From: a virus
IMG/VR virus record: IMGVR_UViG_3300045988_125651
Length of the DNA: 64,000 nucleotides
Direction: 5' to 3' (one strand)
The notes beneath the pieces were generated by a model that was given only the letters and a program-made list of their open reading frames with translations, was not told the origin of the DNA and searched no databases. The position numbers and the translations under genes were made by a program. Positions 16,606-41,876 of the stretch are shown here, piece after piece. Each line of letters starts with the position of its first letter. Within the stretch, counting starts at the first letter, position 1.

Positions 16606-16789
16606 AAAATGGGTAGCGTTAGGCAAAGAGGATACTACACCACAAGGCATGTACTTCATCAACCGTCTAACTTACCACCCATTGCAAAGATACTATATAA
16701 TATTCAGTTTTGCAAGAGTTTGAGTAACAAAATAAAGATAAAATATAAAGTTTAATAAACATTAGTAATAAATTAACAAACAAACAATT

Positions 16790-17287: not shown

Positions 17288-17336
17288 AAATAAATGAAAA
17301 GATAAATAGTAACATAAAATTTTTAAACAAATCGTT

Positions 17337-19268: not shown

Positions 19269-19291
19269 ACATAAGCTATAACAAGTAAACA

Positions 19292-19330
19292 AAAGTGGTG
19301 GACCCTTTAGAAGGTTCACCACTTTTTCTT
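19292..19330. terminator. bidirectional terminator between convergent operons
   Basis: AAAGTGGTGGACC ... GGTTCACCACTTTTTC, with an A-run on one side and a T-run on the other. Confidence 0.6.
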
Positions 19331-19334: not shown

Positions 19335-22300
19335 TTATTCTATCCTATCCAAATCTTCTACAGCCTCCTGCATCTTTCTATTTATCGCCTCATTCACCGC
19401 CTCAACAACGGCCTTATCTTTAGCTCTTTTCAGAATCCTGCGCTTGGCAGCAATGTATCTATCAGCAGCCTCATATATCTTCAGCTTTCTTCCGTCCTTG
19501 CTCTGCGAGAGCTTGAACTTAGTTGCCGCATTATGAATATTCTTAGCAGTATCTGGTGTATTCGTCTTCATCTGCTGCATATTGTATTTCAGCCGTTCAA
19601 GTTCGTCAGCGTAGTTATACCACTTGGATTTAGTCCTCTGCATGTCATTACCCTCCTTCGGAGTATAGTTGAACACTCTATAGAATGGAATAGTATTCGG
19701 GTCTACTTTATCCCATTCCTTATTAAAGCCTTCTGCAAAGCCTTTATCATCCTTGATGCCCGACACGACACCCTTCGCAAACGACTTGCCTGTTTGATAC
19801 ATTCTACCAATCGTGGCACCAGTTCCACCAGTATAACCCTCGACGATATGCTGCAATCCATAAGGAGCAGTAAAGAAGTCTACAGCATCAGCCATCATAC
19901 CACTACCTTTCAAGTCCTCGTTCGTGCTGTCGATACCGTTGAAAGTCTTGTTAGCCCACTTATTGATGGTCATGTACACATCGTTCGTGCTGTCATAGGC
20001 GCGCTTCCATCTTGGAGCCTTGTCAAGATAATCTTTGTCACGGTATATTGGTCTGCCCGTCCAATCTCTGTTGAAAGCAAGTTCAAATTCTGGCTTCGCT
20101 ATTGTCGGAATCACAGAGAGAGCAACATCTTCGCCCAACTCTTTTATTCCGCTCGATGGAGAATGATGTCCCAGGAAGTCTGAGGCAGGAACAAGCTGTG
20201 CCATCTGTCCGATAATGTCCCATCCTATTTGAACGTCACTCTTTAGGCTTTCGTCAACGACATACCCGGCTGCAATATCACCCAAGCCATAGAATGCTCT
20301 AAGCTCTATACCCATAGGTATAGTCTTGAACTTACCGCCTCCCCAATATATACATATATTATTGCGACGTTTCCATTCTGGCAATTCCGCGTATGGATTC
20401 TTTACGCCATTGCGTTTTTTCTCGTCCTCTCTACCAATACGCCATAGATTGAATAATGCAACAGCAAGACTCAGTCCAAAAGGCATTGCGCCAAAAGCAA
20501 TCGCGGTTGTTTTTGTATTATTGTAAAGATTCTTGGCAAAAAGGTTTGCACCCTGCACACCTGCATTATAGAACATAGTGTGATTCTTCATCCAACTGTT
20601 GAACCATCCTACAGGCTTTCTGAATGCAGTATCCGTCTTTCCATCATACCCTGTCTTCAAGCTCTTTATTGCATCGCCCGAACCATGACGGTTGAAGTTT
20701 GAAGAAACCTCCTTAGCGTCATAGATACTCTTGCCTATGCTTCTACCGCGCTTTCTTGATACACAGTAAGTGGAGTAGCGAGCTACGTTTTCTACAACCT
20801 CATTCGCCAATTCGATGAACGCACCGCCTTCTTTCAGCTTTTTCATAAGCCATCGGTCGCCTTCTTTATTTCCTGTCTTTACAAGGTTCTCATATTCTTT
20901 TATTATGTCCTCGTATTTCTTTAACGAAACAAAACCTGTCTCACCGCCATTGTCCATGAACTCCTTAAACCAACGTTCTTTCTGATTGTTTGCATCCAAG
21001 CGTCCATCCTTGTAGCGTCTGAACATTCCAAGATAACCGCCATCAAAGCCGCCATCCTTTCGTCTTACCATAGACCCCCAGTTTTTCGCATACTCCATGC
21101 AGAAGTCCCAAGTATAACCCATTCCTTCCTTTACCACCAAGTTTGCCGACCCAGCGGTCAGGTCTCGTACAAGGTTTGAAGACACAAAGTCCGGATTAAG
21201 CGAAGTGTTCAACTGGGCGCAATATCTGTTCAGTTTTGCCGACTGTTCCGTTGCCCAATGTTGTGTGCCCGAGTCTCTGAGCAATCCATTAATAGCTTGT
21301 GCTGCTCTTGGGTTTCCCTGGCAAACAAATCTGCGCACTCTGCCGTTCACGTATACATTAACTATATGTTGGTTCATGTCGCTGCTGCGCTCAAACTTAT
21401 AGCCAATGTCGCTTTTCCTTCTCGCTATCTTTGCCTCGCCATGAGCTTGCTTTGCCTTCATGGTGTCCTCAAAGGTGTTCAATATATCGTTGATCTGCTC
21501 TTGGGTTGAGTTTTCGGGAATGTTCGGCATTACTTCCTCCCATACCTCATTACCGTCAACGGTATGCTTCTCCACCCAAGGCTGAATCTCCACGAATATT
21601 CTATCCTTAGCGTCCCCCTTCTCATAGGCTTCCACAAAGCGCATGAAGTGTTGTTTCTCCACATTCTTGCCACCGTTCAATATGGACGATTTTGCCAAGG
21701 CTGATATTTGTGCCAATACGTTCACGTCACTAAGGCTCTCACGTCCTCTTGCCTTTTCAATCACAGAACCTATGTAGTTCTTTGTGTCGCTACCCGATAT
21801 GTAGCCGTACACATCTTCGGCAACTGTATCGTCGAATTTTCTTAATGGAACATACCAGTCGAACATTTCTTTCAAATGGTCTCTTCCGTTTTTATCCATG
21901 AATCCGTTGGCATACACTTGGTCTATAGTGAAGTCGGTAGCTTTCTTCTTGGCATCCCAAAAGCTCTTCACCAAGTCTGCCCCAAGCTGGCTTTCCGTGC
22001 TCATCACCTCGTCTATAACGTTGGCATCGTCATACTCCTCGCCTTTCTTCACGTCATAGATTCCGTGCATACCCGAATAGTCATGCTCCTCAGCCTTGAA
22101 GTCCTTGTCCAAGTTCTGCACAATCCACTCGTCCATCTGACGATAATACTCTCTCAAGTCTATCTGTCCAGAGTCAAGCTTCTGTCTAAGGTCGCTTCTC
22201 TCGCCCTTCCAAGCAGTCTCCAAAGCATCAATACTATCGGATTCTTCACTCTTCACTTTTCGTTCTTCCCTTATCTTGTCTCTTACGAATAGTACTCTGT

Positions 22301-25300
22301 TTCTCTCCAAACCATGCTTCTTTATAAAGTATAGATTGGCGTTTCGTGTCTGCTCTGCTCCGTCCTTGCCGGGCATTGCCGACACCACTTTCTTGAAGGC
22401 GTCACCTAATGGCTCGGTGTATTCTCTGTCGTATCTCTCGCACATCTGCATAACCATACTGCCCATTCTGTTATGGCATTGCAATGGATTGAAGGCCGAA
22501 GGAATATCTGCATAAGCATCCTTCACACCCGAGATTATCTGCATGGCTTCCTGCAAAGACTGCATATCGTCCACGGTACTCTCCTTGAATGCGTACCATT
22601 TTGTGCTCAATCGTCTGTTGTATTCCTCAATTTTCGATGCTGTCATTGGCGAGGTTCTATAGTGTACATGTCCGTCTGTAGCCTCGTCAAAATCTTTCTT
22701 GTTAAGGTCCAACAGCCCATGCTTCTTGCCGTTGTTGTCGTACATCATACCGTTCTCTTCTACAACGGATAATGTCTTCTCATGCTCTATCTTCCACCTC
22801 ACAGCCTCAGCTCTCATCTTCCACAGCGGACTGTCTCCATGCTTCTGCACGTTCTTCGCAAGCCACAGCATATACTTCACGTCCTTCACGTTAGGCGAAA
22901 CTCTGTAGCCTATCTCATGCAGGGCATCTGTCACCTTATTCTTAATGTAGTTCCAGAATCCAGGCTCACCCTTTCCGTCCTCTGCGCTCTTGGCGATAAA
23001 CTCCTCAATAGCGTCATAGAATCCAAGGTGATTCATGTTCATCTTTTCCTTCACATAAGCTCTCAGCTCAGCATTGATAGGGTTATCCAAGTCCATCCAA
23101 AGACTTCTCATGTAGTCATTGAATTTATCTCCAAGCAGCCCTCTCATGCCCTTGTGTCCTACGGTCTCGTGCCATACGGTTTTCTCCGCGGTATACGAGT
23201 CATGGATATTAGGCATATACAGATGCACTTCGCCCGTCTTCTCGTCATACCAGCCAGTCACCTGCTTGCCGTTCTCTATGTCCTTGCGCACCTTCGGGTT
23301 CTCAATCTCCTCAACCGAGTTCACCATCTTCACCTTGCCTCCAGTTCTCTTGGCAACCTTCTCCACGGTCTTGATGATACGCTCGCTCACAGCATTCGAA
23401 GTCCCCGAAGTCTTCTCAGGTGTTACAACACCATCGCCTTCTTTTCTAAAGAAAGTCTCCCCATCTGTTAAATTTTTACTCTCATCAAGCAATTTTTTGC
23501 CCGAATCGTAGGATTTCTCAACTCCTTGCAGTAACTTTGCGGTTGAAATATAACCGTTGGTTGTACTGTTCAAAGGGAGACTGTCGGATTCGTTCGCTTT
23601 CTCGGAACCTTCCGACGTTATATTTTTAGAGTTGCTTGGTGTCGTGTCCAAAGGGGAACTGTCGGGTAACACCGCTGTGCCAGGAGCGTCAGGCAGCTCT
23701 ATCTTATTATCAATAGAGTTGTTTGATGCATCCGAAGGTGGTCTGTCGGGATTTTCTCGCTTTCCAGGGGAGTCAAGCAGCTCTATTTTTGTTACCTCAT
23801 AGCTGTGAGGTTTGTTTTCTTCTCCTCCTCTGAACTCTTGCATAGTAGTCTTCACACGGTATATCTTACCGTCCATCTCTACTGCGCCATAAAGTCTATG
23901 TACAAGGATATTGTTTCCATATCCAAGCTCGGCTTTTCTTTTTCCGGTTTCGTCCTTTACGTTATAATCCGCGTGAATCTCAGCCTCGATGCTCTCATGG
24001 ATAACATCTGTAAGTTTGGGAAGTACCGAAAGATGAATGTCAAGATTCTCACTTTTACGAACAGCACTTTCTGAAAGATATTTTTCAACAGCCCTTTTGC
24101 TGATTGTATAAGATGTACCATCGCGCATAATAGGCATTTCTGTCTTTCCCGTTGTTACAAGGTTTTCTTTTGCCCATTCTCTGGCATTTTTTAAAGAAGT
24201 TTCAATATTGTCACCAAAGGGAGATTTCTCAACCTCTACCACCTTCACCTTCTCCTTATTCAGATTAGGCATAACGATTCCTTTCTCCTCCACAGCTCTG
24301 TCTCTCACAGCGTCAAAGTGTTCCTTGCTGTCTGAGAAGGTATCGCCAAGCTCCATGCGGTAATGGGCATTTGCCTTTCCATACACCTCTGCAGCATGCT
24401 CCATTCTGTACATCACACCCTTGCCATCGTTCTGTTTCTTCAAGTATCGTTGCATTTCCTCCTCGGTCATGCCAGCCAACTTGCAAGTCAGTTTCTTTAG
24501 CTCCGCAATCACAGCCTGGCTTGTCTCGTCTCTCGTATAACGCTCATACTCCTCAAATCTCTCGTATGTACCCGAAAGAATACTCTTTCTCTGCTCAGCG
24601 TTATATTCACCCAAGTCAAACATAATAGAGTAATCGTTGCGGTCTCCTCTCACATGCACATTAATACCATGCTCGTTCAAGTTCACCGTCACGTCTTTCA
24701 GTTCCTTCAAGTCCTTGGCTGTCTGCTTGCTCTTCTTCTGCATTATCGTATTGGTGTCGATAATGCGGTCAGGCATTTCTATATCGCGCAAATCCTCAAA
24801 GAAATCCTCTATCTTATCGTAGTGACCACCCAAGTTCACTTTCTCTACGCTGCCAGCCTTGGCTCGCATAGCCTCGTTGCTTATCTTGTCCACTACTACC
24901 ACACGGCATACTACATTGGTACCTGCCTGTTTGAACACGATGTCTGGCAACTCCACCTCGGCACGCATTACGGCTGTCTTCTCACCATTAATCCACTTCT
25001 CAAACTTCTTGTCCGTTGAACCTCTCGGTATAATAGCTACCACACGACCGCCTTCCTCCAAGTGTTTGAATGCCTTACCCAAGTGGGCAATGGCTGTCGC
25101 TCCTGCCGTACCAAACGGTGGGTTCATTACTACAACATCATGCTTGTTGCTGATGTCGTAGTTCTCGAATATGGTGTTCACGAACTTTCTACCCAGTCCA
25201 CCTGCCTTCAACTGCAACTTGGCAAACAGACTCTGACTTGGTTCTATTGCCACCATCTGATTGCCCTTTGGAGCATATCGTGCTATCGCTCCATGTCCGG

Positions 25301-28300
25301 CACTCGGCTCCATTACGGTGTCACCCTCGCCCATGTTCGCCCATTCCATCATCTTATAGCCTAATGGTTCAGGTGTTGGGAAGTAGTCTACACCCTCTCT
25401 GTTGCGGGAGTTCAACTTCTGGTTCGAGTAGTAGTCAAGCACTGCATTGTCAAATCCGTCCGTGCTTTGGTCTTTAGGCGCGTCAAATTCCTTGCCTCCT
25501 ACTCCTTGTTGATCGATAGGCACCACTCCGCTATGCTCCAATATACCGTTGGCGAAACTGTCTCTCAAACTTCTTGCCTGACTTCCAAGCGCAAGGTTCT
25601 CAGTTGTCGATACCTGGTTGTTGAACTTCTGTCCGAACAGCATCATTTCTGAGTTCAGTCCCAATATCGGGTACTCAAATATGGCGTTGCTCTTGTTACC
25701 GATACGGTAGGTTCGTCCCTCTATCTGCAAGGCTGTGATAGGACTCTGAGGCAGAGCCAATGTTATGCACACTCGCTGATGCTCGCCCGTCTTGTCATGC
25801 AGGGAGATTCCCTCCTTGCCGCTCGCCTCCTGTATCACGATGATGTTCTTGCCGCTGTTGTCGTCGTTGAAGATGTCCACAGCCTTGTCCTTCACCTTAG
25901 AGCTTTCCTTTCCGCTGAAGAACAGCACATTGTCCTTGCCGAACACCTTGGCTATCTGCTCACGAGGCATACTGTAGTCAAGGGTCTGCTCCCACTTCAG
26001 CAAGTCGGCATACTTCTTTCTGAAATCTCTTACAGCCTGCGCAGCCTCCTTCTTATCCTTGCCTTCGCTCATTATCGAAACCAAGTGGTTGGCTTGCTCC
26101 AACATCAAGGCGAACGGCGGCTTCAATGGTTCCTTAGTCTCCACGCGACGATGGAATATCACAACCTTGCGTCCTGCATCCAAATGGGCCTTTATGCGCT
26201 CGATAATGTTAGCCACCTTCATAGTCTCAAACAGCGCGCTACCATAATTGTAGTCGCCAATCGTCCTGCGGTAAGCGTCTGCCAACACTCCGTGTCCTCT
26301 TACGGCATCCTGCACAGCTTGGTTGAACTGCTCCGCATGGTCGGGCGATACCGTCGGGAAGTCTCTTGAATAGTCATACGGACTGTCTATAATGCGTCCG
26401 CTCATGGTTCCCAACGTGTCTTGCAGATAGTCAGAGAAGGCTATCTCCTGCTTGGCTACTGCCTCTGGGTTGCTTGTGCTCTGCTCCAGTCTGTTGTAAC
26501 GGAATTTGTATGCCGAACCAAAGTTGTCCAGATAGAACTGTGTGCGTCCGCTTATTCTTCCGCCCTTCTCTACTTCGGGATACTTGAAAATGTAACCCTC
26601 CACATAGTCAAGATTCTCGCGAGTGTTGAATGGTGTGGCCGAAAGGAAGATGGTCTTTGTGTCCTTCCATTCAGCTTTTGCCTGTGCCTTAAGCTTTGGC
26701 TCCACAATGCTATTGTAGTGTCTTACGGCGTTTACATATTCAGCATGTATCTTGCCAAGCTTCGGGTAGTCGGCATATTCTCTAAAGCTTTGTATATCCT
26801 TCGGCAACATTCTTCTTATGGCATAGGCCACGTCACTTGCTGTTGCGCTCGGATGGCTCACCTTATACTCTTTGCGTATACGCTCCACCTCCTTCTCGCG
26901 CTCAGCGTCAAACTGTTCGCCAAGACTCTTCATCTTCTGATAGTCCTTGTTCGTCTCCTGCAATCTCAGGAAGCAATGACGCTCGTCACGGTTCGTCACC
27001 ATGTAGTGCTGTATACTGCGTGCCGTGTCCGCGCCCTTCTTGTTCTCCATGATACGGTGGCTCTCGTCGTATATCACAGCGTCCCAGTTCTCTTCCAACA
27101 GCTTCTTGTTCACTCCGAAGTTGGCGAATGTGGTGATCACCACGCCCTCGCCGCTTTCCGTCGTAGCCGTTGTGCCACGCTCCTTGGCTATGCTGTCAAG
27201 GTCGCGAATCTCCATGTTCAGGTTGCGTCCGTCCTTTATCCAGTCGCTCACCTTCTTCTGGCTCGGGGTCACAATGAGTATTCGTCCCTTGCCCTGCTTC
27301 ACAAGTCGCTTGGCAATGCCAAGTCCCGTAAACGTCTTGCCCGTCCCCGTGCCATTGGTGAACATGTAGCCCTTGCCGTAGGCGTGCTCTCTGTCCGCGT
27401 GCTCATTGCCGAAGAACTGTGTCTCTGCTTTCAGCACGTCCTCCTGCTGTTGGGGCAGAAGATATGGTAGGGTTTCCTCGATATTCTTCTTGTCGCCTAT
27501 CTTCACCTTGATAGGCTCGGCATCCATCTGTCTCTGATACTTATCGTTCAGAGGCTCTGAAAGCTTGTTTCTCAGCTCCTCGTTTCCGTGGATGCCTGCC
27601 CATTCGCCGATGGTATGGGTCTCACCGTCCATCTGGTAAGGAGTGTTCCAATAGTCTTCGATGAATCTGTCAACATCATCATCGCTGAGGCCTATCATCT
27701 TCAACTCCTCGCCTTCCTCGGCGCGCATAGCTGCCTTCCATTCGTTGAATTTGTAGATGCCTTCCTTTATTTTCAGCACAGCTCCATTAAGGTGCATCTT
27801 GAACAACTCGGGGAGCATTTCTATCTGCTCGGGCGAAAGATTCAGCTTCTTGAAGGGAGTCAAGGCTATCTTAACATATCCTTGCCCTGCCTTCTTCCAT
27901 CTTTCCCAAAAGTCCTTTTTCTTCTGCTCGTATTCGGCGCGCTCCTGCTTTAGTCGCTCAGATGTACTATTTGGGAAATGAGTTCCTTGCTTGGCTGCAG
28001 GCTTCCGTCCTGCATTCGGGTCAAGAGGTCCATTGCCGCCGCCTTGTCCTCCTCGCTTAGGTACATTTCCCTCATTGCCAGCTCCACCGCCTCCTCGGGT
28101 GTCAGTACTTCCGGCAGATACGGCATCCATTCCGGGTGTATTTCCTTCACCTTTGTCAACGCGCGGTTTTCCAGTAGATACAGGAGTGTCGTTCTCACCG
28201 CCCGTTCCGCTCTCTCGCTCTCCGGGTGTAGTTCGTTCGCTGTCTGTTCTATCCACTGGTCCATCAGGTCCTCCGCCTTTTCGTCCTCGTCCCAATCCCA

Positions 28301-31300
28301 ATTCTTGGCTGCCTCCAGTATTGGGAACATCCAGCTGTGTTCCGTCTTTTGTTCCGCTATTATCGGGAACATTCTCATGTCTACTTCTAACATCGTTCCA
28401 AATTTTAAAGTAAGAAATTGCGTTAATTATATTGCCCTTGTCGCCACGCAAGTATGCGAGTGCGGCAGGTATCAACTCTCTGTTCTCCTTAGAAGTCAGC
28501 TCGTTTATCTCTGTTTCCGTAAGAGGATTCTTCGACGACACGGCTTCTCGTTCCTCCAAGTCCATCTGTTCCCAAGGCTTGTTTACCTTCTCGGCTTCTG
28601 CCTTGCCTACTTCCTTGCCAAGAATCTTTCCTAACTCTCGACCGATAATTCTGCGTCGCTCCACTAAGCCGATACCGTTTCCTCTCAGCTTAGTTTCCAT
28701 CGCCTGTTTCATCTTCTCTGTAGCACGCTTAATATCAGAAGCGTCGCCGCTCTCCTTGGCAGCAGTCAGTTCCTTACGCGCCTTCTGTATCTGCTCGTCC
28801 TTGAACATTTCTGCAGTATGCGCCAACCAAGCCAACGGATTTGTCTTTGGGGGTTCCTCACCCTCAACCTTAGTATCGGATTTTTCACTTTTCTCTTTTC
28901 CCTTTTCACTCTTCAAGGGGTTCGCTCCCTTAGCCCAGTCTGCCAGCACCTTGTCTGCCACATCGCTACCCCTAATCTCACCCTCAGTCAAAGGATGGTC
29001 TTTCTTGTAGTTCTCCGCAGCTTTCACTATCGGATTAAGCGTATTCTCTTCTTTCTTAGGAAGGATTGAAAGCGGTTCTTTATTCAGTTCTTCTTTTTCT
29101 GTATATTCGTTGTATCTCTCGCCTTCCTCTATTACGGATTTAATAATACGTGCCGCATCTGCCACATTATCCAATGTAATTTGTGGCAGCTTTGCAATAG
29201 GGTCGTTTTCTTTAATCTGGCTTATATTACGGTAGTCATTATCCAATGCCTTCAACTGGGCATACCAAGGGCTGTTCTTGTCGGCATATATCCAGCCGTC
29301 TCCGTTTTCACCGTAAGAAAGATGGACTCCTTCAAGTCCTGCATCTTTCAATGCAGAATCTAAGGCACTCTCGATAGTCTTAATAACTTCCGTTAAAGGT
29401 TTTATGAGTGCCTTATTAACATTATAGCTTTTATCGTTTTTCTTTGTATTCTTACAAATTGACAAATAAGACGAAAGATAGCCATGGCCAAGTGGGCTCG
29501 CAAGGATAGCTTCCACCAAATCTTTCTGTGCGTTCTTTATACGCTTCTTATCGCCACTCTCAACGGCTTCTTTCAAAGCCTTAGCAACAGGCGAAACCTG
29601 TTTCAAACCTTGGTCGCGAGACTCTATGTAAGCCTTGAATTTATTTTGAGGCGCAAGGTCTCCTTCTATTTCTTTCGTTCTTGGAAGTTCACCTTCTCTT
29701 TCCTCTCCCTTCGGCTTAGTCGGCTCCACAGGCTCCACAGGCTCAGTAAGGGCCAGTGAGGCCTCGTGAGGCTTATCACTTTTCTCTTCCTCAGCCTTGT
29801 CTACTTCTCGCTGTCCTTCTGTTGGTTCGTCTCCTCCTGGTGCTTGCGGTTCAGTTCCCTCAGAGCTGCCAGCATCGCCATTTCCTTCTTTGCTTGAATG
29901 TCTTGTTTCATAGTCTTTCCAGTTTCTAAGTTTCAAAAATTCCTTTATAAACTCTTCATTCGTAGGTCTCTCGCCGAACATTTCCATCTGGTTGGCATCT
30001 GCATAAGGAGCAGCATTTCTGTTATACGCCATCATCAGCTCACGGAAGTCCTCAGCCTTACCCTCCAGAGCAAGAGCAATAGCCTGCGAGATAGGGTCAA
30101 ATCTGTCAGCTGCGTTCTCGCCAAACATAGCAGGAGTGCGCAAGTATGCGTCCACACCGCTTCCGCCTTGACGAGCTTCGTACAGCAACTGCACTGCCTG
30201 GTCTATCTCCTTCATCAGAGCATAGTCGCCAAGTTTCATATTGTCCGTCACAGCACGGATGCCGTTCAGAGCCTTGGTTTTCAGCATAGCGTCAGCGCCC
30301 ATCATGCGGATGGTGTTCTCCGAGAACACACTGCCCAATAGCAGGTTCTTCACGAAGTCCTTGCCTGCTGCCGAAAGCTTGTCCTCGCCCTCACGCAATC
30401 CCGCTATCTCGTTCAGACCAATCACGCCCTTATCAATTAAACGCTTTAGCAACGAGTTTATTGCAGTAGGATTGTTAAAGAATGCGTCAAGACTACCGCT
30501 TCCCTCTATCTCTGATATAATAGTGCCTATCTCGTCTGCAGAAAGCTTCTTCGAGTTCGCCACTGCCTGCTGAGTATTGCCCTGCGATTTCTTCTCGTTC
30601 TTGTTGAACTTGGCAAAGGTTGCCGTGTCATACTTCATCGGCTCGTCACTCACAAGCACAAGGCGCGGATGCTTTATACCACTCTGCTCAATCTGCTCTG
30701 CGGTGAAGCCGTAATTCTCTGCATTCTCCTTCAATGCTTCAAGATAAGCACTGTCGGTACCGTTCTTTGCTGCCTTCTGTCCCGCCATCGTTCTGCCGTT
30801 ACCGTCAACAACAATGCCGTCAGATGTCACAACCGGAACCTGGTCTACTGCCTGTCCGTCATACTTCATGGCTATCATATCCGTTACCATCTGAGCCTGC
30901 TTGTCATTCTCATAGTCACGGTCATTGATAGTCCTGCCTTCTTCGTTCACGGGGAAACCCTCACTCTTCTTATATCCGTCGTTGGCATTATGCGAAGGTG
31001 TCAGACTGTCTGCTTCAACAATCTCATAGTGTCCTCTTAGCTTGCTTCCGTCAGCCAATGTACGTGTACGCTTGTTGCCCACAATACGCTTACCGCTTTC
31101 AAACTTCTCACGAACAGCGCCTAAATTACCTGCTTCACTTACCGAACCTTCTTCACCTACACTACCTACCTTCTCCATTCCAGCCTTAACCTTATTCGCG
31201 GTCATTACCTTCTTGATATTGGTATATAGCTCCAGCTCTGCTTTGGCGGCATCAACTGCCTTCGCCTTCTGAGCCTCAGCTTCCTTGGCGTCGTTCAAGT

Positions 31301-34300
31301 CGCCCGTGTAATCCACCTTTATCATTTCGGCTTCCTTCAGCATTTTCTCGGCTCTCTTTATCTGTCCGTCTACAGCAGCTTCTGCGTTCTCGCCAAACTG
31401 CGAAGACATCCACTCCGCTCCATGTTCGGGTGTCATCTGCGAGTAGTCAGCAGTCTCACGGCCTTTCGTGTCCTTCATCATCGGCACAGGTGAGCCATCG
31501 GCAAATGTTAAAGTCTCGTTACTTCCATTGCCATTATCGGATGGATTCTTTTTTTCTCCTTCCCCTATAGGCTTTACATCTTCAACTCCAGGCGCCGACG
31601 CGCCCTCCTTCGGTGTTACAACACTCTCAGTCTTAGTATCGGATTCTTCACTTTTCTCTTTTCCCTTTTCACTTTCAGCGTAAGCCCCTGAGTTCAACTC
31701 CTCCAACTTCGTTTGATAGGCCTTGGCATAGTCCTCCGTCTTTTCCACATGGTCAAGCTGCACGTCCTTCTTGCTCACGAAGTCCATCTCCTTTGTATTC
31801 GGGTCAAGCACGCTAAGCATGTCGCCAACGCTTTCTCTCGCTCTACCCTCATTATCAAAGGCAACATCGCCCGCTCCAACAATAAGCAGTCTGCCATTGT
31901 TGTCCTTCACGAACAACATCTGGCCGCCCTCTTGCTTCTCACCGTTCAGCCCGCCCTTGTAGCTCCATTGCTCCACATGCTTCTGCACGGTCTCAGCAAT
32001 CTTCTGTTCAGTTCCGCGATACATGCCCACAGCCTTAGCCTTGGTGTTGATATAGTCGGCAAAAGGTACAAGCTGTTCCTGCGTCAGTCCCGAGTTTATC
32101 AGCTCCATGTATATCTGAGGTTCCGAGAGACCTTCCTTTGTTAGTCTCTCATACTCCTGCTTCAACACATCGTTACTTTCCAAGGCTGCATTAAACGCCT
32201 TTTCGGCATTATTCATGTTGTTCAGCACCTCAGCCACAGCCTCGTTGTTAGGATTCTCCGTGCCAAGGTTATTTTCCTCAACCACGTCCTTGCCCTCTGT
32301 CTGCGACTGGTCGGGATGCAACGTTCCTTCCGGGAACTGCTCTCCCTCATAAGCCTTTCTCAGAGCCACGCAAGCGTTCTGTTCTTCCTCGCTGCGCTTC
32401 AACGGGTCTTTGTCCATAGCTGCCTTCAACTGTTCAGCAGTAAAGCCAAACGTCTCAGCTACAGTCTCCAATGTTTCTTGTGCCGCCTTCTCGTCCTTTA
32501 TCTGAGCTGCGCCATAGGCATTACTCAAACGTTGGTTTTCCTTTTTCGCCCCAAGATTGTATTTGATTGAAACGTATTCGTCGGCTGTCTTATAGCGGTT
32601 CTTTGAGAGCAACTCTCCATAAAGGCTATACTCACCCACATACGCTCCTCTTTCGTCACGCTCTATCGCTATATGGTCCATCATCGGACGTGCCGAAGGA
32701 ACAGTTCCCATAACCAAAGCAGAGAACTTAGCCTTTGTGTCCCAAGGGATAGTTTCATCTGCCATTATCTCGTCATAGGCAGTCTTCACAAACTCAGTGT
32801 CTGTGTCCTTATACGACTCCTCGCCTTTCCCTTTGGCTGCGGTCTTCTTAGTTCGCATCGCCCAAGATGTCAGACTCTCTTTTCTCGTCAGCGGATTGTC
32901 GTGTACGTCATATCCGTAGAGCGTCTCTTCGCGCTTTGGCGCCTTGTCGCTTCCGAACAGCTGCTCTTTCTCCTCATTGGTAAAAACATATCCACCAAAG
33001 GTCGCTCTCTGTCCGTCAGATGTCATAAGGTTTTTAATATTTCTCGCCACCATATCAAGGTAGCCTTCCTTTTTGCCATCATTCACCTGACGCTTAGGCA
33101 GTCTTGCGTGTGTCAGCTTCAAGGCTACAACATTGGCACAAGCCTCAAGTGTGCCTTCAACGCTCCAGAAGTCGGTATCATGTCCCTCTATCATCTTGGC
33201 GACATTGCCACCGACGTGCATACCCCAACCTTCCATCGCTATTTGGAACACCTTGGCAGGGATGCGCTTCACGCCACTTACATTATAGATTCCTGCACCT
33301 ACAGCACCGCCAATGCCACCCATAGTAGCCCAGCTTGCGCCCTCAGAAAGACCGCCCATAGTCATAAGCTTCACGGTATTGCCAATAGAGGTATCATCAC
33401 CCGTTGAGTAATTCTGAACAGCAGCATTCGTCGAACCATAAAGCACACCCGTTACACCTTGACTTACGGCTCCAGTACCAACCATTCGACCTATGCGCCC
33501 TGCAAGACTCGTGTTAGCAATCCTTGCTGCCTGTGCCACACCATTGCCGAAAGCCTTGCCTGCGACCCATGCACCGCCCTTGCCAAGCACACCAAATACT
33601 GGGCCATCAGCACCAAAGCCTAATGTGCCTCGTGCCACTCTCGCTCCCATACCCGGCTTAACATAAGGATTTTCCCCGTTATCGGTCATAGCCATTCCTT
33701 GCTGAGCATACTGTCTCTGCTTCTTCGACATCATACCCATCGACAAGATAGTGCCTATCATCGAGTCGTTGACACCACGGATGATATATTCTGCCGTACT
33801 CTTAGGCATATTACGGCTCAATTCGCTCTTCTCAAACTCCTCAGCTATCTTTGCTTGCAAGCCAGGAGCTATATAATTCTTTACATAATCCTCTGGGTCG
33901 ATACCTAACGAAGCTGCCTTTTCTGCTATTTCCTTCTGCATCTTCGGGTCGGAGAACAACCCAGCCATGTCTTTCTCGGCATTCTTGCTGAGCTGATTCA
34001 TTAGCTTGTCAGGATCAAGGGCTTCATTGTAAGCCTTACCTGCTGCCATATATGCAAATGGAGAGGCCTTGCTCAAAGCATCTTCTGCTGCAACACCTTT
34101 AACTGTCGCATCCTTAAACATCTTTTGGATACTATTGTTTATATATCCGCCAAGCTGTTTGTCAACAAGCTGTCTGCTGCTTTCTTCCAACTCATCCTCC
34201 AACTGCCCCCTTGTCTTCACAATATTGTTGTTCACGTCCTCGTTCCCAAGGTCAAAGGCTGGAGCATTCCTTCGTCTTATCTCACCCTCAGCATTTCTAC

Positions 34301-34874
34301 CAGCCTCTTGTCCAGCCTGTTCCATTCTACGCTCCAGTGACTTCTGTGCTCTTCTCACACCGCCTACCATCTGTTTTACAGCACCCGGCTTTGTATAGTC
34401 TATAGGCATCTGCTCCTCGTCGCGCTTTCTAATCATATCAGCAGCGCGCAAGCCCTTCACTAGCTCGCTTTCCTTACCCGTAGTGCCACCGTTCCAATCA
34501 TCCAATGTCACAGCATTCCTCTTCGGTGCTGAAACATTCTCAGATGTCGTAGTGTTCTCATGTGTTACAACACCACCGCCCCACTTCTCTTGCGCCACAC
34601 TCTGTTGCGCGCGTCCAAGTGCCGAGCTATTGGGTTTCCCCTTTCCTCTTGTTATCGTTCTTCCCGTAAACAGATGAGCACCAAAGTCACCAACACGACT
34701 CGCATCCTTTACGCTCACATCGCCTCTTCGCCCTGTCTTTCGGTCTATTACCTCCATTCGAGCACCAGGGAATGCTTTTGCAAATCCCATCGGGTCCTTG
34801 TCATACGCTGTCTTGTCTACCGTATGCCTGTTACCTTTCGCATCCTTGAAATAATAATATCTATTGTCTGCCAT
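19335..34874 (-). CDS. giant multidomain (polyvalent, DarB-like) virion/ejection protein, 5179 aa
   Basis: Uninterrupted 15,540-nt ORF. The motifs are listed as sub-features below. Sits in an operon with three other internal-virion-like proteins. Confidence 0.9.
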   Translation of the reverse strand: MADNRYYYFKDAKGNRHTVDKTAYDKDPMGFAKAFPGARMEVIDRKTGRRGDVSVKDASRVGDFGAHLFTGRTITRGKGKPNSSALGRAQQSVAQEKWGGGVVTHENTTTSENVSAPKRNAVTLDDWNGGTTGKESELVKGLRAADMIRKRDEEQMPIDYTKPGAVKQMVGGVRRAQKSLERRMEQAGQEAGRNAEGEIRRRNAPAFDLGNEDVNNNIVKTRGQLEDELEESSRQLVDKQLGGYINNSIQKMFKDATVKGVAAEDALSKASPFAYMAAGKAYNEALDPDKLMNQLSKNAEKDMAGLFSDPKMQKEIAEKAASLGIDPEDYVKNYIAPGLQAKIAEEFEKSELSRNMPKSTAEYIIRGVNDSMIGTILSMGMMSKKQRQYAQQGMAMTDNGENPYVKPGMGARVARGTLGFGADGPVFGVLGKGGAWVAGKAFGNGVAQAARIANTSLAGRIGRMVGTGAVSQGVTGVLYGSTNAAVQNYSTGDDTSIGNTVKLMTMGGLSEGASWATMGGIGGAVGAGIYNVSGVKRIPAKVFQIAMEGWGMHVGGNVAKMIEGHDTDFWSVEGTLEACANVVALKLTHARLPKRQVNDGKKEGYLDMVARNIKNLMTSDGQRATFGGYVFTNEEKEQLFGSDKAPKREETLYGYDVHDNPLTRKESLTSWAMRTKKTAAKGKGEESYKDTDTEFVKTAYDEIMADETIPWDTKAKFSALVMGTVPSARPMMDHIAIERDERGAYVGEYSLYGELLSKNRYKTADEYVSIKYNLGAKKENQRLSNAYGAAQIKDEKAAQETLETVAETFGFTAEQLKAAMDKDPLKRSEEEQNACVALRKAYEGEQFPEGTLHPDQSQTEGKDVVEENNLGTENPNNEAVAEVLNNMNNAEKAFNAALESNDVLKQEYERLTKEGLSEPQIYMELINSGLTQEQLVPFADYINTKAKAVGMYRGTEQKIAETVQKHVEQWSYKGGLNGEKQEGGQMLFVKDNNGRLLIVGAGDVAFDNEGRARESVGDMLSVLDPNTKEMDFVSKKDVQLDHVEKTEDYAKAYQTKLEELNSGAYAESEKGKEKSEESDTKTESVVTPKEGASAPGVEDVKPIGEGEKKNPSDNGNGSNETLTFADGSPVPMMKDTKGRETADYSQMTPEHGAEWMSSQFGENAEAAVDGQIKRAEKMLKEAEMIKVDYTGDLNDAKEAEAQKAKAVDAAKAELELYTNIKKVMTANKVKAGMEKVGSVGEEGSVSEAGNLGAVREKFESGKRIVGNKRTRTLADGSKLRGHYEIVEADSLTPSHNANDGYKKSEGFPVNEEGRTINDRDYENDKQAQMVTDMIAMKYDGQAVDQVPVVTSDGIVVDGNGRTMAGQKAAKNGTDSAYLEALKENAENYGFTAEQIEQSGIKHPRLVLVSDEPMKYDTATFAKFNKNEKKSQGNTQQAVANSKKLSADEIGTIISEIEGSGSLDAFFNNPTAINSLLKRLIDKGVIGLNEIAGLREGEDKLSAAGKDFVKNLLLGSVFSENTIRMMGADAMLKTKALNGIRAVTDNMKLGDYALMKEIDQAVQLLYEARQGGSGVDAYLRTPAMFGENAADRFDPISQAIALALEGKAEDFRELMMAYNRNAAPYADANQMEMFGERPTNEEFIKEFLKLRNWKDYETRHSSKEGNGDAGSSEGTEPQAPGGDEPTEGQREVDKAEEEKSDKPHEASLALTEPVEPVEPTKPKGEEREGELPRTKEIEGDLAPQNKFKAYIESRDQGLKQVSPVAKALKEAVESGDKKRIKNAQKDLVEAILASPLGHGYLSSYLSICKNTKKNDKSYNVNKALIKPLTEVIKTIESALDSALKDAGLEGVHLSYGENGDGWIYADKNSPWYAQLKALDNDYRNISQIKENDPIAKLPQITLDNVADAARIIKSVIEEGERYNEYTEKEELNKEPLSILPKKEENTLNPIVKAAENYKKDHPLTEGEIRGSDVADKVLADWAKGANPLKSEKGKEKSEKSDTKVEGEEPPKTNPLAWLAHTAEMFKDEQIQKARKELTAAKESGDASDIKRATEKMKQAMETKLRGNGIGLVERRRIIGRELGKILGKEVGKAEAEKVNKPWEQMDLEEREAVSSKNPLTETEINELTSKENRELIPAALAYLRGDKGNIINAISYFKIWNDVRSRHENVPDNSGTKDGTQLDVPNTGGSQELGLGRGRKGGGPDGPVDRTDSERTTPGERESGTGGENDTPVSTGKPRVDKGEGNTPGMDAVSAGSTDTRGGGGAGNEGNVPKRGGQGGGNGPLDPNAGRKPAAKQGTHFPNSTSERLKQERAEYEQKKKDFWERWKKAGQGYVKIALTPFKKLNLSPEQIEMLPELFKMHLNGAVLKIKEGIYKFNEWKAAMRAEEGEELKMIGLSDDDVDRFIEDYWNTPYQMDGETHTIGEWAGIHGNEELRNKLSEPLNDKYQRQMDAEPIKVKIGDKKNIEETLPYLLPQQQEDVLKAETQFFGNEHADREHAYGKGYMFTNGTGTGKTFTGLGIAKRLVKQGKGRILIVTPSQKKVSDWIKDGRNLNMEIRDLDSIAKERGTTATTESGEGVVITTFANFGVNKKLLEENWDAVIYDESHRIMENKKGADTARSIQHYMVTNRDERHCFLRLQETNKDYQKMKSLGEQFDAEREKEVERIRKEYKVSHPSATASDVAYAIRRMLPKDIQSFREYADYPKLGKIHAEYVNAVRHYNSIVEPKLKAQAKAEWKDTKTIFLSATPFNTRENLDYVEGYIFKYPEVEKGGRISGRTQFYLDNFGSAYKFRYNRLEQSTSNPEAVAKQEIAFSDYLQDTLGTMSGRIIDSPYDYSRDFPTVSPDHAEQFNQAVQDAVRGHGVLADAYRRTIGDYNYGSALFETMKVANIIERIKAHLDAGRKVVIFHRRVETKEPLKPPFALMLEQANHLVSIMSEGKDKKEAAQAVRDFRKKYADLLKWEQTLDYSMPREQIAKVFGKDNVLFFSGKESSKVKDKAVDIFNDDNSGKNIIVIQEASGKEGISLHDKTGEHQRVCITLALPQSPITALQIEGRTYRIGNKSNAIFEYPILGLNSEMMLFGQKFNNQVSTTENLALGSQARSLRDSFANGILEHSGVVPIDQQGVGGKEFDAPKDQSTDGFDNAVLDYYSNQKLNSRNREGVDYFPTPEPLGYKMMEWANMGEGDTVMEPSAGHGAIARYAPKGNQMVAIEPSQSLFAKLQLKAGGLGRKFVNTIFENYDISNKHDVVVMNPPFGTAGATAIAHLGKAFKHLEEGGRVVAIIPRGSTDKKFEKWINGEKTAVMRAEVELPDIVFKQAGTNVVCRVVVVDKISNEAMRAKAGSVEKVNLGGHYDKIEDFFEDLRDIEMPDRIIDTNTIMQKKSKQTAKDLKELKDVTVNLNEHGINVHVRGDRNDYSIMFDLGEYNAEQRKSILSGTYERFEEYERYTRDETSQAVIAELKKLTCKLAGMTEEEMQRYLKKQNDGKGVMYRMEHAAEVYGKANAHYRMELGDTFSDSKEHFDAVRDRAVEEKGIVMPNLNKEKVKVVEVEKSPFGDNIETSLKNAREWAKENLVTTGKTEMPIMRDGTSYTISKRAVEKYLSESAVRKSENLDIHLSVLPKLTDVIHESIEAEIHADYNVKDETGKRKAELGYGNNILVHRLYGAVEMDGKIYRVKTTMQEFRGGEENKPHSYEVTKIELLDSPGKRENPDRPPSDASNNSIDNKIELPDAPGTAVLPDSSPLDTTPSNSKNITSEGSEKANESDSLPLNSTTNGYISTAKLLQGVEKSYDSGKKLLDESKNLTDGETFFRKEGDGVVTPEKTSGTSNAVSERIIKTVEKVAKRTGGKVKMVNSVEEIENPKVRKDIENGKQVTGWYDEKTGEVHLYMPNIHDSYTAEKTVWHETVGHKGMRGLLGDKFNDYMRSLWMDLDNPINAELRAYVKEKMNMNHLGFYDAIEEFIAKSAEDGKGEPGFWNYIKNKVTDALHEIGYRVSPNVKDVKYMLWLAKNVQKHGDSPLWKMRAEAVRWKIEHEKTLSVVEENGMMYDNNGKKHGLLDLNKKDFDEATDGHVHYRTSPMTASKIEEYNRRLSTKWYAFKESTVDDMQSLQEAMQIISGVKDAYADIPSAFNPLQCHNRMGSMVMQMCERYDREYTEPLGDAFKKVVSAMPGKDGAEQTRNANLYFIKKHGLERNRVLFVRDKIREERKVKSEESDSIDALETAWKGERSDLRQKLDSGQIDLREYYRQMDEWIVQNLDKDFKAEEHDYSGMHGIYDVKKGEEYDDANVIDEVMSTESQLGADLVKSFWDAKKKATDFTIDQVYANGFMDKNGRDHLKEMFDWYVPLRKFDDTVAEDVYGYISGSDTKNYIGSVIEKARGRESLSDVNVLAQISALAKSSILNGGKNVEKQHFMRFVEAYEKGDAKDRIFVEIQPWVEKHTVDGNEVWEEVMPNIPENSTQEQINDILNTFEDTMKAKQAHGEAKIARRKSDIGYKFERSSDMNQHIVNVYVNGRVRRFVCQGNPRAAQAINGLLRDSGTQHWATEQSAKLNRYCAQLNTSLNPDFVSSNLVRDLTAGSANLVVKEGMGYTWDFCMEYAKNWGSMVRRKDGGFDGGYLGMFRRYKDGRLDANNQKERWFKEFMDNGGETGFVSLKKYEDIIKEYENLVKTGNKEGDRWLMKKLKEGGAFIELANEVVENVARYSTYCVSRKRGRSIGKSIYDAKEVSSNFNRHGSGDAIKSLKTGYDGKTDTAFRKPVGWFNSWMKNHTMFYNAGVQGANLFAKNLYNNTKTTAIAFGAMPFGLSLAVALFNLWRIGREDEKKRNGVKNPYAELPEWKRRNNICIYWGGGKFKTIPMGIELRAFYGLGDIAAGYVVDESLKSDVQIGWDIIGQMAQLVPASDFLGHHSPSSGIKELGEDVALSVIPTIAKPEFELAFNRDWTGRPIYRDKDYLDKAPRWKRAYDSTNDVYMTINKWANKTFNGIDSTNEDLKGSGMMADAVDFFTAPYGLQHIVEGYTGGTGATIGRMYQTGKSFAKGVVSGIKDDKGFAEGFNKEWDKVDPNTIPFYRVFNYTPKEGNDMQRTKSKWYNYADELERLKYNMQQMKTNTPDTAKNIHNAATKFKLSQSKDGRKLKIYEAADRYIAAKRRILKRAKDKAVVEAVNEAINRKMQEAVEDLDRIE
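20440..20515 (-). other. giant ORF: predicted transmembrane helix in the C-terminal region (~aa 4788)
   Basis: TTAIAFGAMPFGLSLAVALFNLW hydrophobic stretch. Confidence 0.5.
23154..23171 (-). other. giant ORF: HETVGH motif (possible metallopeptidase-like site)
   Basis: WHETVGHKGMRG at aa 3902-3907. The spacing is HExxxH, not the canonical HExxH, so the assignment is tentative. Confidence 0.3.
24885..25427 (-). other. giant ORF sub-region: N6-adenine DNA methyltransferase, ~aa 3150-3330
   Basis: Motif I VMEPSAGHG (aa 3189) and motif IV VVMNPPFG (NPPF at aa 3251). Confidence 0.8.
25635..27467 (-). other. giant ORF sub-region: SF2 (DEAH / SNF2-DarB-like) helicase, ~aa 2470-3080
   Basis: Walker A GTGTGKT (aa 2508). 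DESH (aa 2603). SAT in TIFLSATPF. Motif VI QIEGRTYRIG (aa 3050). Confidence 0.8.
27950..28393 (-). other. nested +1-frame ORF (147 aa) inside the Gly-rich linker of the giant ORF
   Basis: ATG at 28393, with a stop 33 nt upstream in that frame. The sequence is non-repetitive and helix-like, while the giant frame here is low-complexity G/P/T/R-rich. Coding status is unresolved. Confidence 0.3.
28869..28910 (-). repeat. 42-bp direct repeat, copy B (encodes SEKGKEKSEKSDTK, aa 1989-2002)
   Basis: Offset from copy A is 2763 nt, exactly 921 codons, in the same frame. Confidence 0.85.
30615..31040 (-). other. giant ORF sub-region: ParB/Srx-like nuclease-fold domain, ~aa 1280-1420
   Basis: VVDGNGRTMAG (D at aa 1357, nt 30804-30806) matches the ParB-like DGxxR core. 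It is preceded by HYEIVEADSLTPSHN. Confidence 0.55.
31632..31673 (-). repeat. 42-bp direct repeat, copy A (encodes SEKGKEKSEESDTK, aa 1068-1081)
   Basis: Matches 28869-28910 at 41 of 42 positions. Confidence 0.85.
33195..33677 (-). other. giant ORF sub-region: Gly/Ala-rich hydrophobic (glycine-zipper-like) segment, ~aa 400-560
   Basis: GTLGFGADGPVFGVLGKGGAWVAGKAFGNG ... GGIGGAVGAGIY. The boundaries are approximate. Confidence 0.5.
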
Positions 34875-36348: not shown

Positions 36349-36817
36349 AATCCTCCACGTTTTTCTTCAACAAGTCAAACGCCTGACCAAGGGTATTGAC
36401 AAACTTCTCTGCCTTTTCCCTACGCTTGTACTGAAATTCTATCTCCTTGTTCAGTACAGCAATCACCTCGCACTTCTCTGACATGCGCTTAGCGTTCTTC
36501 TTCTTTATCCTCTCTATCACCTTGTCCTTATACGCCAAAGCATTCTCGGCCGACTTCAAGCAAGCGGCAAGATTGTCACGCTCGGCACACAAGCCGTCAA
36601 AATGCGCAGCAAGGCTCTTATAATCCTCTTGAAGTTTCTCCAACGCCAAGTGATAACGCTCTGCAAGCTCCTCATTCATCTTCAACGACTTCTCCAATAT
36701 CTTTATCTTCTTTGCTTGCTCGTCAACAACAGAATCCTTCAACAAACCCGCAGCCTCCATCACACGATCAACGTCTACACCTTTCTTCGCGTTTATATCA
36801 ATCTTTTTCTTTCCCAT
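36326..36817 (-). CDS. coiled-coil protein (163 aa)
   Basis: Heptad-rich K/E/L sequence. 23-nt overlap with the downstream gene. Confidence 0.7.
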   Translation of the reverse strand: MGKKKIDINAKKGVDVDRVMEAAGLLKDSVVDEQAKKIKILEKSLKMNEELAERYHLALEKLQEDYKSLAAHFDGLCAERDNLAACLKSAENALAYKDKVIERIKKKNAKRMSEKCEVIAVLNKEIEFQYKRREKAEKFVNTLGQAFDLLKKNVEDYEHSIGR

Positions 36818-36862
36818 AGTATAATCTTTTTTATTATTTTCCTACATGCGTTACAACGCTTC

Positions 36863-37537: not shown

Positions 37538-37567
37538 ATCTACTGTATTTTTTAATAACCATAACTA

Positions 37568-37725
37568 ACATCCTTTCTCTCCAGTACCTTTTCCAGGAAA
37601 TATACTAACGACCTCCTTTCTGTGGAGTACCTTTTCTGGGGAAAATGATGATGACCTCCTTTGAGAACAGTACCTTTTTATACCTATGCTTTTATCTACT
37701 ATAATTCGCAGCCAGTACCTAAGCC
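37568..37725. repeat. ~43-bp degenerate tandem repeat (3.5 units) upstream of the ejection operon
   Basis: GTACCT(TTT) core at 37584, 37627, 37670 and 37715 (spacing 43/43/45). Each is preceded by (A)CCTCCTTT. On the minus sense it reads AAAAGGTAC ... AAAGGAGGT. Confidence 0.6.
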
Positions 37726-37740
37726 CCCACCCCCTTTGGG

Positions 37741-38686: not shown

Positions 38687-38725
38687 GGGCTGACGCCCTC
38701 CCCTCCGCTGCGCCTTGAATGGACG

Positions 38726-41875: not shown

Positions 41876-41876
41876 T

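Follow-up and report, generated by a model that had tools for sequence, protein, structure and literature searches.

A 5179-residue phage-type polyvalent protein with constant terminal modules and variable, putatively anti-restriction cargo, from a probable short-tailed phage of the Prevotellaceae

The DNA analysed here (hereafter the window) is a 64,000-nucleotide (nt) viral stretch, IMG/VR record IMGVR_UViG_3300045988_125651, and the subject of this work is the giant gene that it carries on the minus strand, a single open reading frame (ORF) of 5179 codons that begins with ATG. An earlier note, made from the letters alone, had described this ORF as uninterrupted, and both the ORF listing of the window and our independent translation, with 0 internal stops, agree. 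All the motifs quoted at the time are present, no more than two residues away from where they had been placed: VVDGNGRTMAG, the ParB core, at amino acid (aa) 1355 (formerly 1357), GTGTGKT at 2508, DESH at 2603, SAT at 2676 and 2745, QIEGRTYRIG at 3050, EPSAGHG at 3189, NPPF at 3251 and HETVGH at 3902, together with KRAVEKYL (3593), HLSVLP (3614) and ILVHRLYG... (3656) in the LPD3 segment. By its domain content the product is a phage-type polyvalent protein, a class already described by Iyer, Burroughs, Anand, de Souza and Aravind in 2017 (PMC5512222), with at least two effector domains of that repertoire in one ORF and a phage virion or late gene context. Constant N- and C-terminal modules enclose a ParB module, a superfamily 2 (SF2) helicase, an N6-adenine methyltransferase (MTase) and an LPD3 domain (Table 1).

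Table 1. Coordinates of the giant gene, its modules and the neighbouring features in the window (dN/dS, ratio of nonsynonymous to synonymous substitution rates; KD, Kyte–Doolittle hydropathy; TM, transmembrane; L005, a related metagenomic contig)
Feature	Position (nt)	Strand	Residues (aa)	Remarks
Whole giant gene	19335..34874	(-)	5179 codons + stop	dN/dS 0.05-0.33 vs L005
N-module	31545..34874	(-)	1-1110	N-terminal in ~100 representative giant proteins
Gly-rich, weakly hydrophobic block	33075..33794	(-)	361-600	17-24% Gly
Linker repeat, copy 1	31608..31673	(-)	1068-1089	SEKGKEKSEESDTKTE; N-module/ParB junction; holds one GTGTTACAACAC
ParB module	29742..31526	(-)	1117-1711	
ddrB-ParB core	30684-31052	(-)	1275-1397	Pfam PF18763
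Variable K/E-rich linker	28965..29741	(-)	1712-1970	replaced in relatives
Left cassette junction	28920..29081	(-)	1932-1985	
Linker repeat, copy 2	28845..28910	(-)	1989-2010	SEKGKEKSEKSDTKVE; 85% identical to copy 1
SF2 (SNF2/Sno-related) helicase	25662..27410	(-)	2489-3071	GTGTGKT, DESH, SAT, QIEGRTYRIG
Gamma-class N6-adenine DNA MTase	24870..25397	(-)	3160-3335	FPTPEP, EPSAGHG, NPPF
LPD3	23820..24194	(-)	3561-3685	PF18798, E 4e-9, 37 bits vs 27-bit cutoff
Constant C-module	19338..23465	(-)	3804-5179	~1350 aa
Right cassette junction	23241..23372	(-)	3835-3878	
Invariant HExxxH	23154..23171	(-)	H3902, E3903, H3907	followed by G-x-R-x-L-x-G
TM-like helix	20451..20507	(-)	4790-4808	KD 1.87
LPD38	19776..20399	(-)	4826-5033	PF18857, E 1e-28 to 4e-30, 101-106 bits vs 27-bit cutoff
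Hairpin	19291..19326	.		14-bp stem, flanking A and T runs; between convergent gene ends
Three co-oriented upstream genes	34906..37537	(-)	480, 163, 224	
P22-like portal	9401..11392	(-)		PF16510, E 3e-25; phrog_156

An open frame of this length cannot have arisen by chance. When the gene is compared with its orthologue on L005, a metagenomic contig of 83.6 kb, the low dN/dS range of Table 1 holds for every alignable segment, those with no recognisable motif included, and the ORF is therefore a genuine gene, under purifying selection and coding along its entire length. Two relatives are interrupted, which speaks for an assembly chimera or a decaying pseudogene: in L005 an in-frame TAG (12776-12778) stands at the place of the window's Tyr941 codon and yields products of 925 and 4643 aa, whereas in a second relative (L006, 2991-16236) the modules lie in frames 3, 1, 2 and 1, in five called ORFs whose breaks fall at module junctions. 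These interruptions could be either real splits or assembly errors; stop-codon recoding was set aside for the L005 TAG, a single event at a Tyr codon. Nevertheless, the uninterrupted frame of the window, the dN/dS values across the modules and the matching architecture seen both in numerous independent contigs, where the modules follow each other in identical order, and in Bacteroides phages in culture largely refute an origin by chimerism, a worry of the earlier note, or by decay, and we regard either as extremely improbable. A megablast search of the gene against GenBank phages gave no match, PDB sequence searches with all three thirds of the protein gave nothing useful, an NCBIfam scan returned only a meaningless P-loop match, and scanning the window for tRNA genes and Rfam families gave no hits.

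The C-module is common at the least to more than 330 giant proteins in a collection of 5.8 billion proteins, and the onset of homology is sharp, at aa ~3804-3830, independent of what precedes it; in relatives, the upstream domains include Kinase-PolyVal, PBECR, MuF_C, RadC, SprT and Strawberry-notch-type (Sno) helicases. One homologue is already titled 'LPD38 domain-containing protein [uncultured Prevotella sp.]', 'putative polyvalent protein'. Database matches of ~1300-1450 aa were considered as stand-alone C-module genes and rejected, being gene calls cut off at contig ends. By tblastn, matches covering up to 95% of aa 3701-5179 were found in Shiga toxin (Stx), Vibrio, Ralstonia and Bacteroides phages. 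An AlphaFold2 (AF2) model of aa 3825-5024 reached a predicted local distance difference test score (pLDDT) of 71.9, and in Foldseek searches of BFVD it resembled the C-terminal parts of 'large polyvalent proteins' from phages (E 8e-37 to 1e-10, ~1000-1300 aligned columns), among them those of Ralstonia phage Alix, Escherichia phage PTXU04 (rank 18, E 8e-18) and uncultured phages; some of the proteins matched also carry a lytic transglycosylase. The same model had no Foldseek match in the PDB at E<=0.001, T7 gp15/gp16 and the P22 ejection proteins included if they are in the library. The transmembrane (TM) helix previously proposed near aa 4788 is indeed there: by hydropathy, aa 4790-4808 is the sole strongly hydrophobic 19-mer of the protein, and its position relative to the C-terminus is constant in most homologues.

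For the N-module, a word-indexed search gave only ten close homologues, whereas 104 homologues were obtained when 1.84 billion representatives were searched exhaustively with HMMER, the match always lying near the N-terminus, and many of these proteins are 4000-6245 aa long. Among the 46 N-module homologues of at least 3000 aa, the C-module is present in 29, the ParB module in 17 and the helicase-MTase module in 16. The order N, ParB, helicase-MTase, LPD3, C recurs identically in P0195 (5741 aa), and again, with the LPD3 region undetected, in P0187 (6017 aa), P0189, P0192, P0218, P0185 and P0178. Because so many homologues of comparable length share this order, the giant protein is, to judge by sequence comparison, typical of its family in both size and architecture, and the exceptional size once attributed to it does not hold, other members having 5391, 5553 and as many as 6245 aa. 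Within the N-module, a hydrophobic block at aa ~400-560 had been likened to a Gly-zipper; a Gly-rich hydrophobic block does exist, with eight GxxxG motifs, but the label was loose, as there is no GxxxGxxxG. No other part of the module is as constrained as this block (invariant Gly columns, dN/dS 0.13 vs L005), which is a candidate membrane-active segment, and a compositionally similar block occurs in homologues, including gp81 of Serratia phage Parlo (aa 481-590). AF2 modelled the N-module poorly (pLDDT 52.7; aa ~700-1070 alone reach 70-87), and the model had no PDB match under the Foldseek threshold used for the C-module, hints at E>1 to Tim17/23-like four-helix membrane proteins not being relied on; tblastn of aa 1-1270 against phages was likewise without a match.

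The cargo between these modules includes domains known from the P1 anti-restriction system. The ddrB-ParB core is a clear Pfam match (E 1e-14, 54.9 bits vs a 27.6-bit cutoff), and its surroundings align pairwise with the N-terminus of P1 DdrB (28% identity, E 3e-9), DGNGRTMAG falling on GNGRTMG of that protein and the conserved GxxR arginine being retained. After a Gly-rich hydrophilic linker recognised by hydropathy and composition (aa ~2200-2300), Pfam families ResIII (E 5e-12), DEAD, SNF2-rel and AAA_34 mark the N-terminal part of the helicase (aa ~2489-2625), and Helicase_C and Helicase_C_4 its C-terminal part (aa ~2980-3071), whose motif VI aligns with aa 1463-1523 of P1 DarB (E 1e-3). 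The MTase matches phrog_15406 'DNA methyltransferase' (E 4e-28), a second PHROG MTase family (E 1e-18) and, in PADLOC, mad2 (E 4e-13) and MTase_II; Pfam MTS is weak over aa 3207-3284, and aa 88-274 of DarB align with the MTase at E 5e-5. Its TP...EPSAGHG...NPPF pattern is that described for the MTases of polyvalent proteins (Iyer et al. 2017, PMC5512222). The helicase-MTase region is colinear, at 34-36% identity, with Parlo gp81 ('DarB-like antirestriction', 3764 aa), a 'PLxRFG protein' of Klebsiella phage ZX1 and gp28 of Vibrio phage 1.232.O (3292 aa). The ParB, SF2 helicase and N6-adenine MTase assignments of the earlier note are thus upheld by Pfam, PHROG, PADLOC and the P1 comparisons, and with them, given LPD3 and LPD38, the polyvalent, DarB-like logic proposed for the protein. 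The helicase stands ahead of the MTase, the reverse of DarB, and LPD36 was not found in the giant protein by Pfam scans. As for the segment suspected of being RNase-like, it is Pfam LPD3, a domain of unknown function; no search made here ties aa 3561-3685 to an RNase, and that reading is unsupported.

At the DNA level, the window and its relatives share long tracts of 84-95% identity that are broken exactly at module boundaries. The K/E-rich linker is variable (31% identity and many gaps vs L005, low homologue coverage), while the left junction is 89-95% identical in nt among loci with differing adjoining cargo (L006, L010 and L011). In L006 identity is 89% over the N and ParB modules, 95% over the junction at aa 1932-1985 and 94% in the first part of the C-module, aa 3835 onwards, yet the 5.8 kb between the junctions encodes an MTase and then a Sno helicase, which is the DarB order, and shares with the window's cargo only a 114-aa stretch in the MTase region (34%) and a second one of 114 aa (28%). 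In L010 and L011 both junction segments (85-89% nt identity) bracket 2340-aa Sno-helicase proteins beside ordinary bacterial genes; the right junction forms the C-terminal end of these chromosomal proteins, which have no C-module. From three or four loci, we infer that the conserved junctions may be substrates of cassette exchange by homologous recombination. In L010 (56-9163) the 2340-aa protein ends just past the segment homologous to aa 3824-3878 and is preceded by a ParB-module ORF and followed by ordinary bacterial genes; this variant is common (cluster P0083 has 43 member sequences), and loci of the L010/L011 type could be prophage remnants or non-phage elements with shared junction sequences. 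Ahead of the window's helicase, aa 2317-2429 (nt 27588-27926) are 28% identical to the segment ahead of the MTase in the L006 cassette, and this may be an LPD36-like helical domain displaced by the reversed order.

Two of the module junctions also carry the copies of a 66-nt direct repeat, which encodes SEKGKEKSE[EK]SDTK[TV]E; a weaker copy lies at 22206-22271, and the repeat was detected at the DNA level, a protein self-BLAST for internal repeats having returned nothing. In addition, the 12-mer GTGTTACAACAC, with arms GTGTT/AACAC and a 2-nt spacer, occurs in six exact copies, all on the plus strand (7437, 14823, 23420, 31613, 34562 and 36300), whereas ~0.1-0.24 would be expected by chance. 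Since one copy is intergenic and another lies in a gene of opposite orientation, it is a DNA-level and not a peptide motif. Each of the three copies within the giant gene (aa 101, 1084 and 3815) adjoins a breakpoint of similarity with relatives, and L005 retains the 12-mer both at aa ~105, the orthologous position, and where its C-module starts. The motif may serve as a hotspot of recombination or as a binding site for a protein.

The HETVGH site singled out by the earlier note is present and invariant in the family, across homologues down to 25% identity, whereas its reading as a peptidase found no match to a family, a PDB sequence or a PDB fold. Pfam at E<=5 gave no family for this domain, and neither MPTase-PolyVal nor any other peptidase in the whole protein; a profile of the domain had only chance-level matches in the PDB (tyrosyl-tRNA synthetase, HPF1, NS1). 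The spacing is HExxxH and not the HExxH of zincins. In the AF2 model, three short strands lead to the HExxxH helix and then to a later helix with the invariant E3957/E3958, a topology that is only suggestive of a zincin-like domain and is not evidence for one. MuF_C of the relatives was considered as a counterpart of this region and rejected, as it is a separate upstream domain, classed by Iyer et al. 2017 as an RNase-type PBECR domain (PMC5512222). These results bear on the possibility that the giant protein is a polyprotein, from which either the HExxxH domain itself or a protease of the head would release, by cleavage at the linkers, separate N, ParB, helicase-MTase, LPD3 and C proteins with different sites of action. 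According to Iyer et al., processing by a metallopeptidase is typical of polyvalent proteins, and DdrB and DarA of P1 do undergo it (PMC5512222); the peptide SEKGKEKSE[EK]SDTK at two module junctions, the invariance of HExxxH and the breaks of the relatives' frames at junctions would all be consistent with cleavage here. With the wrong spacing for a zincin and no trace of a peptidase family or fold, and considering that N4 virion RNA polymerase (vRNAP), a virion polyvalent protein, is packaged unprocessed (PMC5512222), we see proteolytic processing as possible but doubtful, although it would be compatible with the interpretation that we favour below.

The giant gene is the last of its transcription unit, as previously noted, and its stop lies 66 nt from a convergent gene, the hairpin between the two being a likely bidirectional terminator. 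The three co-oriented genes upstream, also found ahead of the giant gene in L005 and L006, had been called internal-virion-like: this holds in part for the 224-aa product (36863-37537), which resembles T7_gp14 below threshold (E 9e-5, 22.9 bits vs a 27-bit cutoff), and not for the 163- and 480-aa products, which had no relevant match in Pfam or PHROG. Relatives of the giant gene adjoin P22_portal or SU10 capsid genes, and the element is probably a short-tailed phage of the P22-portal type. In a scan of one genome per species, the C-module was found at 181 loci, some of them within megabase contigs, which points to prophages; the best 80 of the 181 are almost all from Bacteroidales, with Segatella copri, Ca. 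Segatella violae and Leyella stercorea in the lead and with Bacteroides, Parabacteroides, Muribaculaceae and Rikenellaceae also among them, for which reason the host is likely to be a member of the Prevotellaceae. A role for the protein as an unpackaged intracellular factor, such as a late self-methylating or superinfection-exclusion machine of restriction-modification type, could be read from the resemblance of its helicase and MTase to defence components (PADLOC mad2, PbeA, MTase_II). Yet the gene lies in a virion module beside a gp14-like gene, LPD38 and DdrB-ParB are, among the domains of polyvalent proteins, phage-type only (PMC5512222) and occur in virion contexts, and homologues have been detected in virions, all of which makes such a factor very improbable.

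Other features of the window are given here as observations in their own right. The structural block at 2229-11392 (887, 712, 123, 201, 262 and 165 aa plus the portal) is co-oriented with the giant gene, with an 8-kb opposite-strand block between them, while in L007 (5644-14380) it is convergent with the giant gene and two small genes away, which points to an inversion or rearrangement between close relatives. A 43-nt tandem repeat (37571-37662, 2.1 copies, 77% matches) stands directly 5' of the first gene of the operon, in a ~1.3-kb stretch (37538-38845) with no ORF of at least 100 aa. Perfect 11-nt tandem repeats of GTGTCCGTTTG at 55564-55593 and 55631-55661 (2.7-2.8 copies each, 67 nt apart, with degenerate copies adjoining) form iteron-like clusters that could be a replication origin or a regulator-binding site. 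Two low-GC islands (16001-18000, 35%; 48001-50000, 33%; ~45-50% elsewhere), whose ORFs have no family matches, may be recently acquired 'moron' genes. The window also encodes a PcfJ-like protein (41853-43073), a RecT recombinase (57829-58755) and an SbcC-like nuclease subunit (58945-60993), so that the phage has a recombination module of its own, which is relevant to the mosaicism of the giant gene.

Taken together, the invariance of the N- and C-modules around variable cargo, the conserved TM helix, the gp14-like neighbour and the data on virions and essentiality of homologues lead us to consider it likely that the giant protein is a packaged ejection scaffold, made of the two terminal modules, which carries swappable anti-restriction cargo acting on the entering DNA. 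The protein would be packaged within the capsid of the probably short-tailed Prevotellaceae phage and, on infection, would leave it along with the DNA. The two bookend modules would be its essential structural part, responsible for incorporation into the head and for forming, or helping to form, an ejection path across the envelope, presumably with membrane insertion. The DdrB-like ParB and the SNF2-type translocase, coupled to the N6-adenine MTase, would act in cis on the entering genome: they would move along it and protect it from restriction of a type I/III-like kind, by methylation or by shielding, in the manner proposed for P1 DarB/DdrB, the action of DarB-like dyads and DdrB-like ParB being a proposal of Iyer et al. 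(PMC5512222); LPD3 would be further cargo, and the short conserved junctions would let relatives swap cassettes by homologous recombination. Two recent studies bear on the structural part. In Stx phage phi24B, virions contain gp47 (2811 aa; LPD5, LPD1, MuF-C and LPD38) in abundance, yet the cryo-electron microscopy map does not show it, and it has been proposed to be an ejection protein (bioRxiv 10.64898/2026.04.10.717836), and in PTXU04 the knock-down of gp25 (2198 aa) strongly cuts plating, so that the protein is essential (PMC11879866). The idea, already put forward in the earlier note, of a fusion to ejection machinery matches the former proposal and fits the latter result.

The protein might instead be a pure anti-restriction effector of the DarB/DdrB type, dispensable on non-restricting hosts, with N- and C-modules that are only capsid-targeting and packaging signals and have no part in envelope penetration. 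The cargo domains have their counterparts in the Dar system of P1, homologues are annotated as 'DarB-like antirestriction', and no structural match to known ejection proteins was obtained. However, an invariant module of 1350 aa with a conserved TM helix far exceeds any known head-targeting signal, the C-module is retained where the cargo has no MTase or helicase, its fold homologue PTXU04 gp25 is essential in a laboratory host, and some homologues carry a lytic transglycosylase; we therefore find a mere effector distinctly unlikely. The scaffold interpretation, for its part, has several points to answer. Because the C-module matched nothing in the PDB, a role as ejection conduit is argued by analogy and from the two papers on distant homologues, and PTXU04 gp25 might be essential on account of a defence system in the test host and not for a structural role. 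Prediction gives a single TM-like helix, the pLDDT of the Gly-rich block in the model is 24-40 and the T7_gp14 match of the upstream gene is below the Pfam threshold. The order of helicase and MTase is opposite to that of DarB, to which the similarity is marginal, and the broken frames of L005 and L006 would mean that fusion is not obligatory, unless they are assembly errors. Finally, we found no experiments in the literature on this protein or on any Bacteroidales homologue.

A bolder proposal, which at present we find unlikely, is that the N- and C-modules together might be a widespread uncharacterised ejectosome of Bacteroidales podophages and many others, functionally analogous to T7 gp14-16 and unrelated in fold, a 'cargo bus' whose effector cassettes would be swapped among phages, and with chromosomal elements too, through short, highly conserved junctions perhaps marked by the strand-specific 12-mer as a recombination hotspot. 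Since the class is already known, a single gene alone leaves the picture unchanged. Its value is that of an intact, clear-cut case from Prevotella/Segatella phages, a group that has received little study, in which the ground plan of the family, constant N- and C-modules, swappable anti-restriction cargo and conserved junctions, can be seen, and only the bookends, the junctions and the possible 12-mer at mosaic boundaries are possibly worth further work. If the constant modules are an ejection apparatus, a large share of gut Bacteroidales podophages would use an uncharacterised DNA-delivery machine that doubles as a vehicle for anti-defence enzymes, with bearing on the host range of gut phages and on the engineering of phages with protein payloads.

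Compared with the class of Iyer et al., the giant protein shares the presence of several effector domains per chain, the late/virion gene context, the extensive mosaicism and the vocabulary of DdrB-ParB, SWI2/SNF2 ATPase with EcoKI/TaqI-like N6-adenine MTase (TP...NPPF), LPD3 and LPD38. It differs in having the helicase first, no LPD36 and no recognisable MPTase-PolyVal, which is the most frequent hub domain, typical but not obligatory, and our scans found no Pfam family for its N-module or for the ~1000 aa of the C-module that lie beyond LPD38. Comparison with the T7 ejectosome (gp14/gp15/gp16) gave the below-cutoff gp14 match of the 224-aa product, no relevant match for the 163- and 480-aa products and no PDB entry matching the models of the N- and C-modules. 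phi24B gp47 and PTXU04 gp25 are likewise podophage proteins with an LPD38-bearing C-terminal module, homologous over the whole C-module and not over LPD38 alone, at ~15% sequence identity; they are about half the size and carry other cargo, with no ParB or helicase-MTase reported.

In P1 the corresponding domains belong to separate proteins. The ParB domain is homologous to the N-terminus of DdrB (995 aa), and the MTase and helicase motif VI are homologous to DarB (2255 aa), both head-packaged anti-restriction components of a myovirus, whereas in the window they are fused in one chain. A gamma N6-adenine MTase with TP and NPPF and a SNF2-clade ATPase are found, as in the DarB family; the order is ParB, helicase, MTase in place of the LPD36-MTase-helicase of DarB, although L006 does have the MTase before the helicase, and P1 has neither LPD38 nor the C-module. 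Among DarB-like proteins of proteobacterial phages, unlike the window phage in host, those of the Bcep22-like podophages (Bcep22 gp75; JC1 gp69, 4515 aa) and Parlo gp81 likewise come from a giant gene that closes the virion module and makes up ~22% of the genome. JC1 gp69 was the second-highest-scoring protein in virion mass spectrometry (PMC9144972). Bcep22 and JC1 are likened here by description; Parlo gp81 has a colinear helicase-MTase, 34% identical, and the Gly-rich block mentioned above; BLASTP against Parlo found no N- or C-module similarity.

Cultured counterparts are known from two temperate phages of Bacteroides, BS-TP4 (gp3, 5391 aa; PQ571277) and BKO1-TP3 (gp55, 5553 aa, 'DarB-like antirestriction'; PQ571269), a third Bacteroides temperate phage, BF1-TP2, also having a C-module match. 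Their giant proteins are of very low identity to the one described here, with no detectable N-module similarity and another helicase, and their giant gene abuts the portal, from which that of the window is separated by the 8-kb opposite-strand block. Even so, they too are Bacteroidales gut phages of ~64 kb in which small genes precede the giant gene and a portal lies nearby, and their giant proteins share with that of the window a ParB module at about aa 1270-1700 and the C-module (22% and 26% identity).

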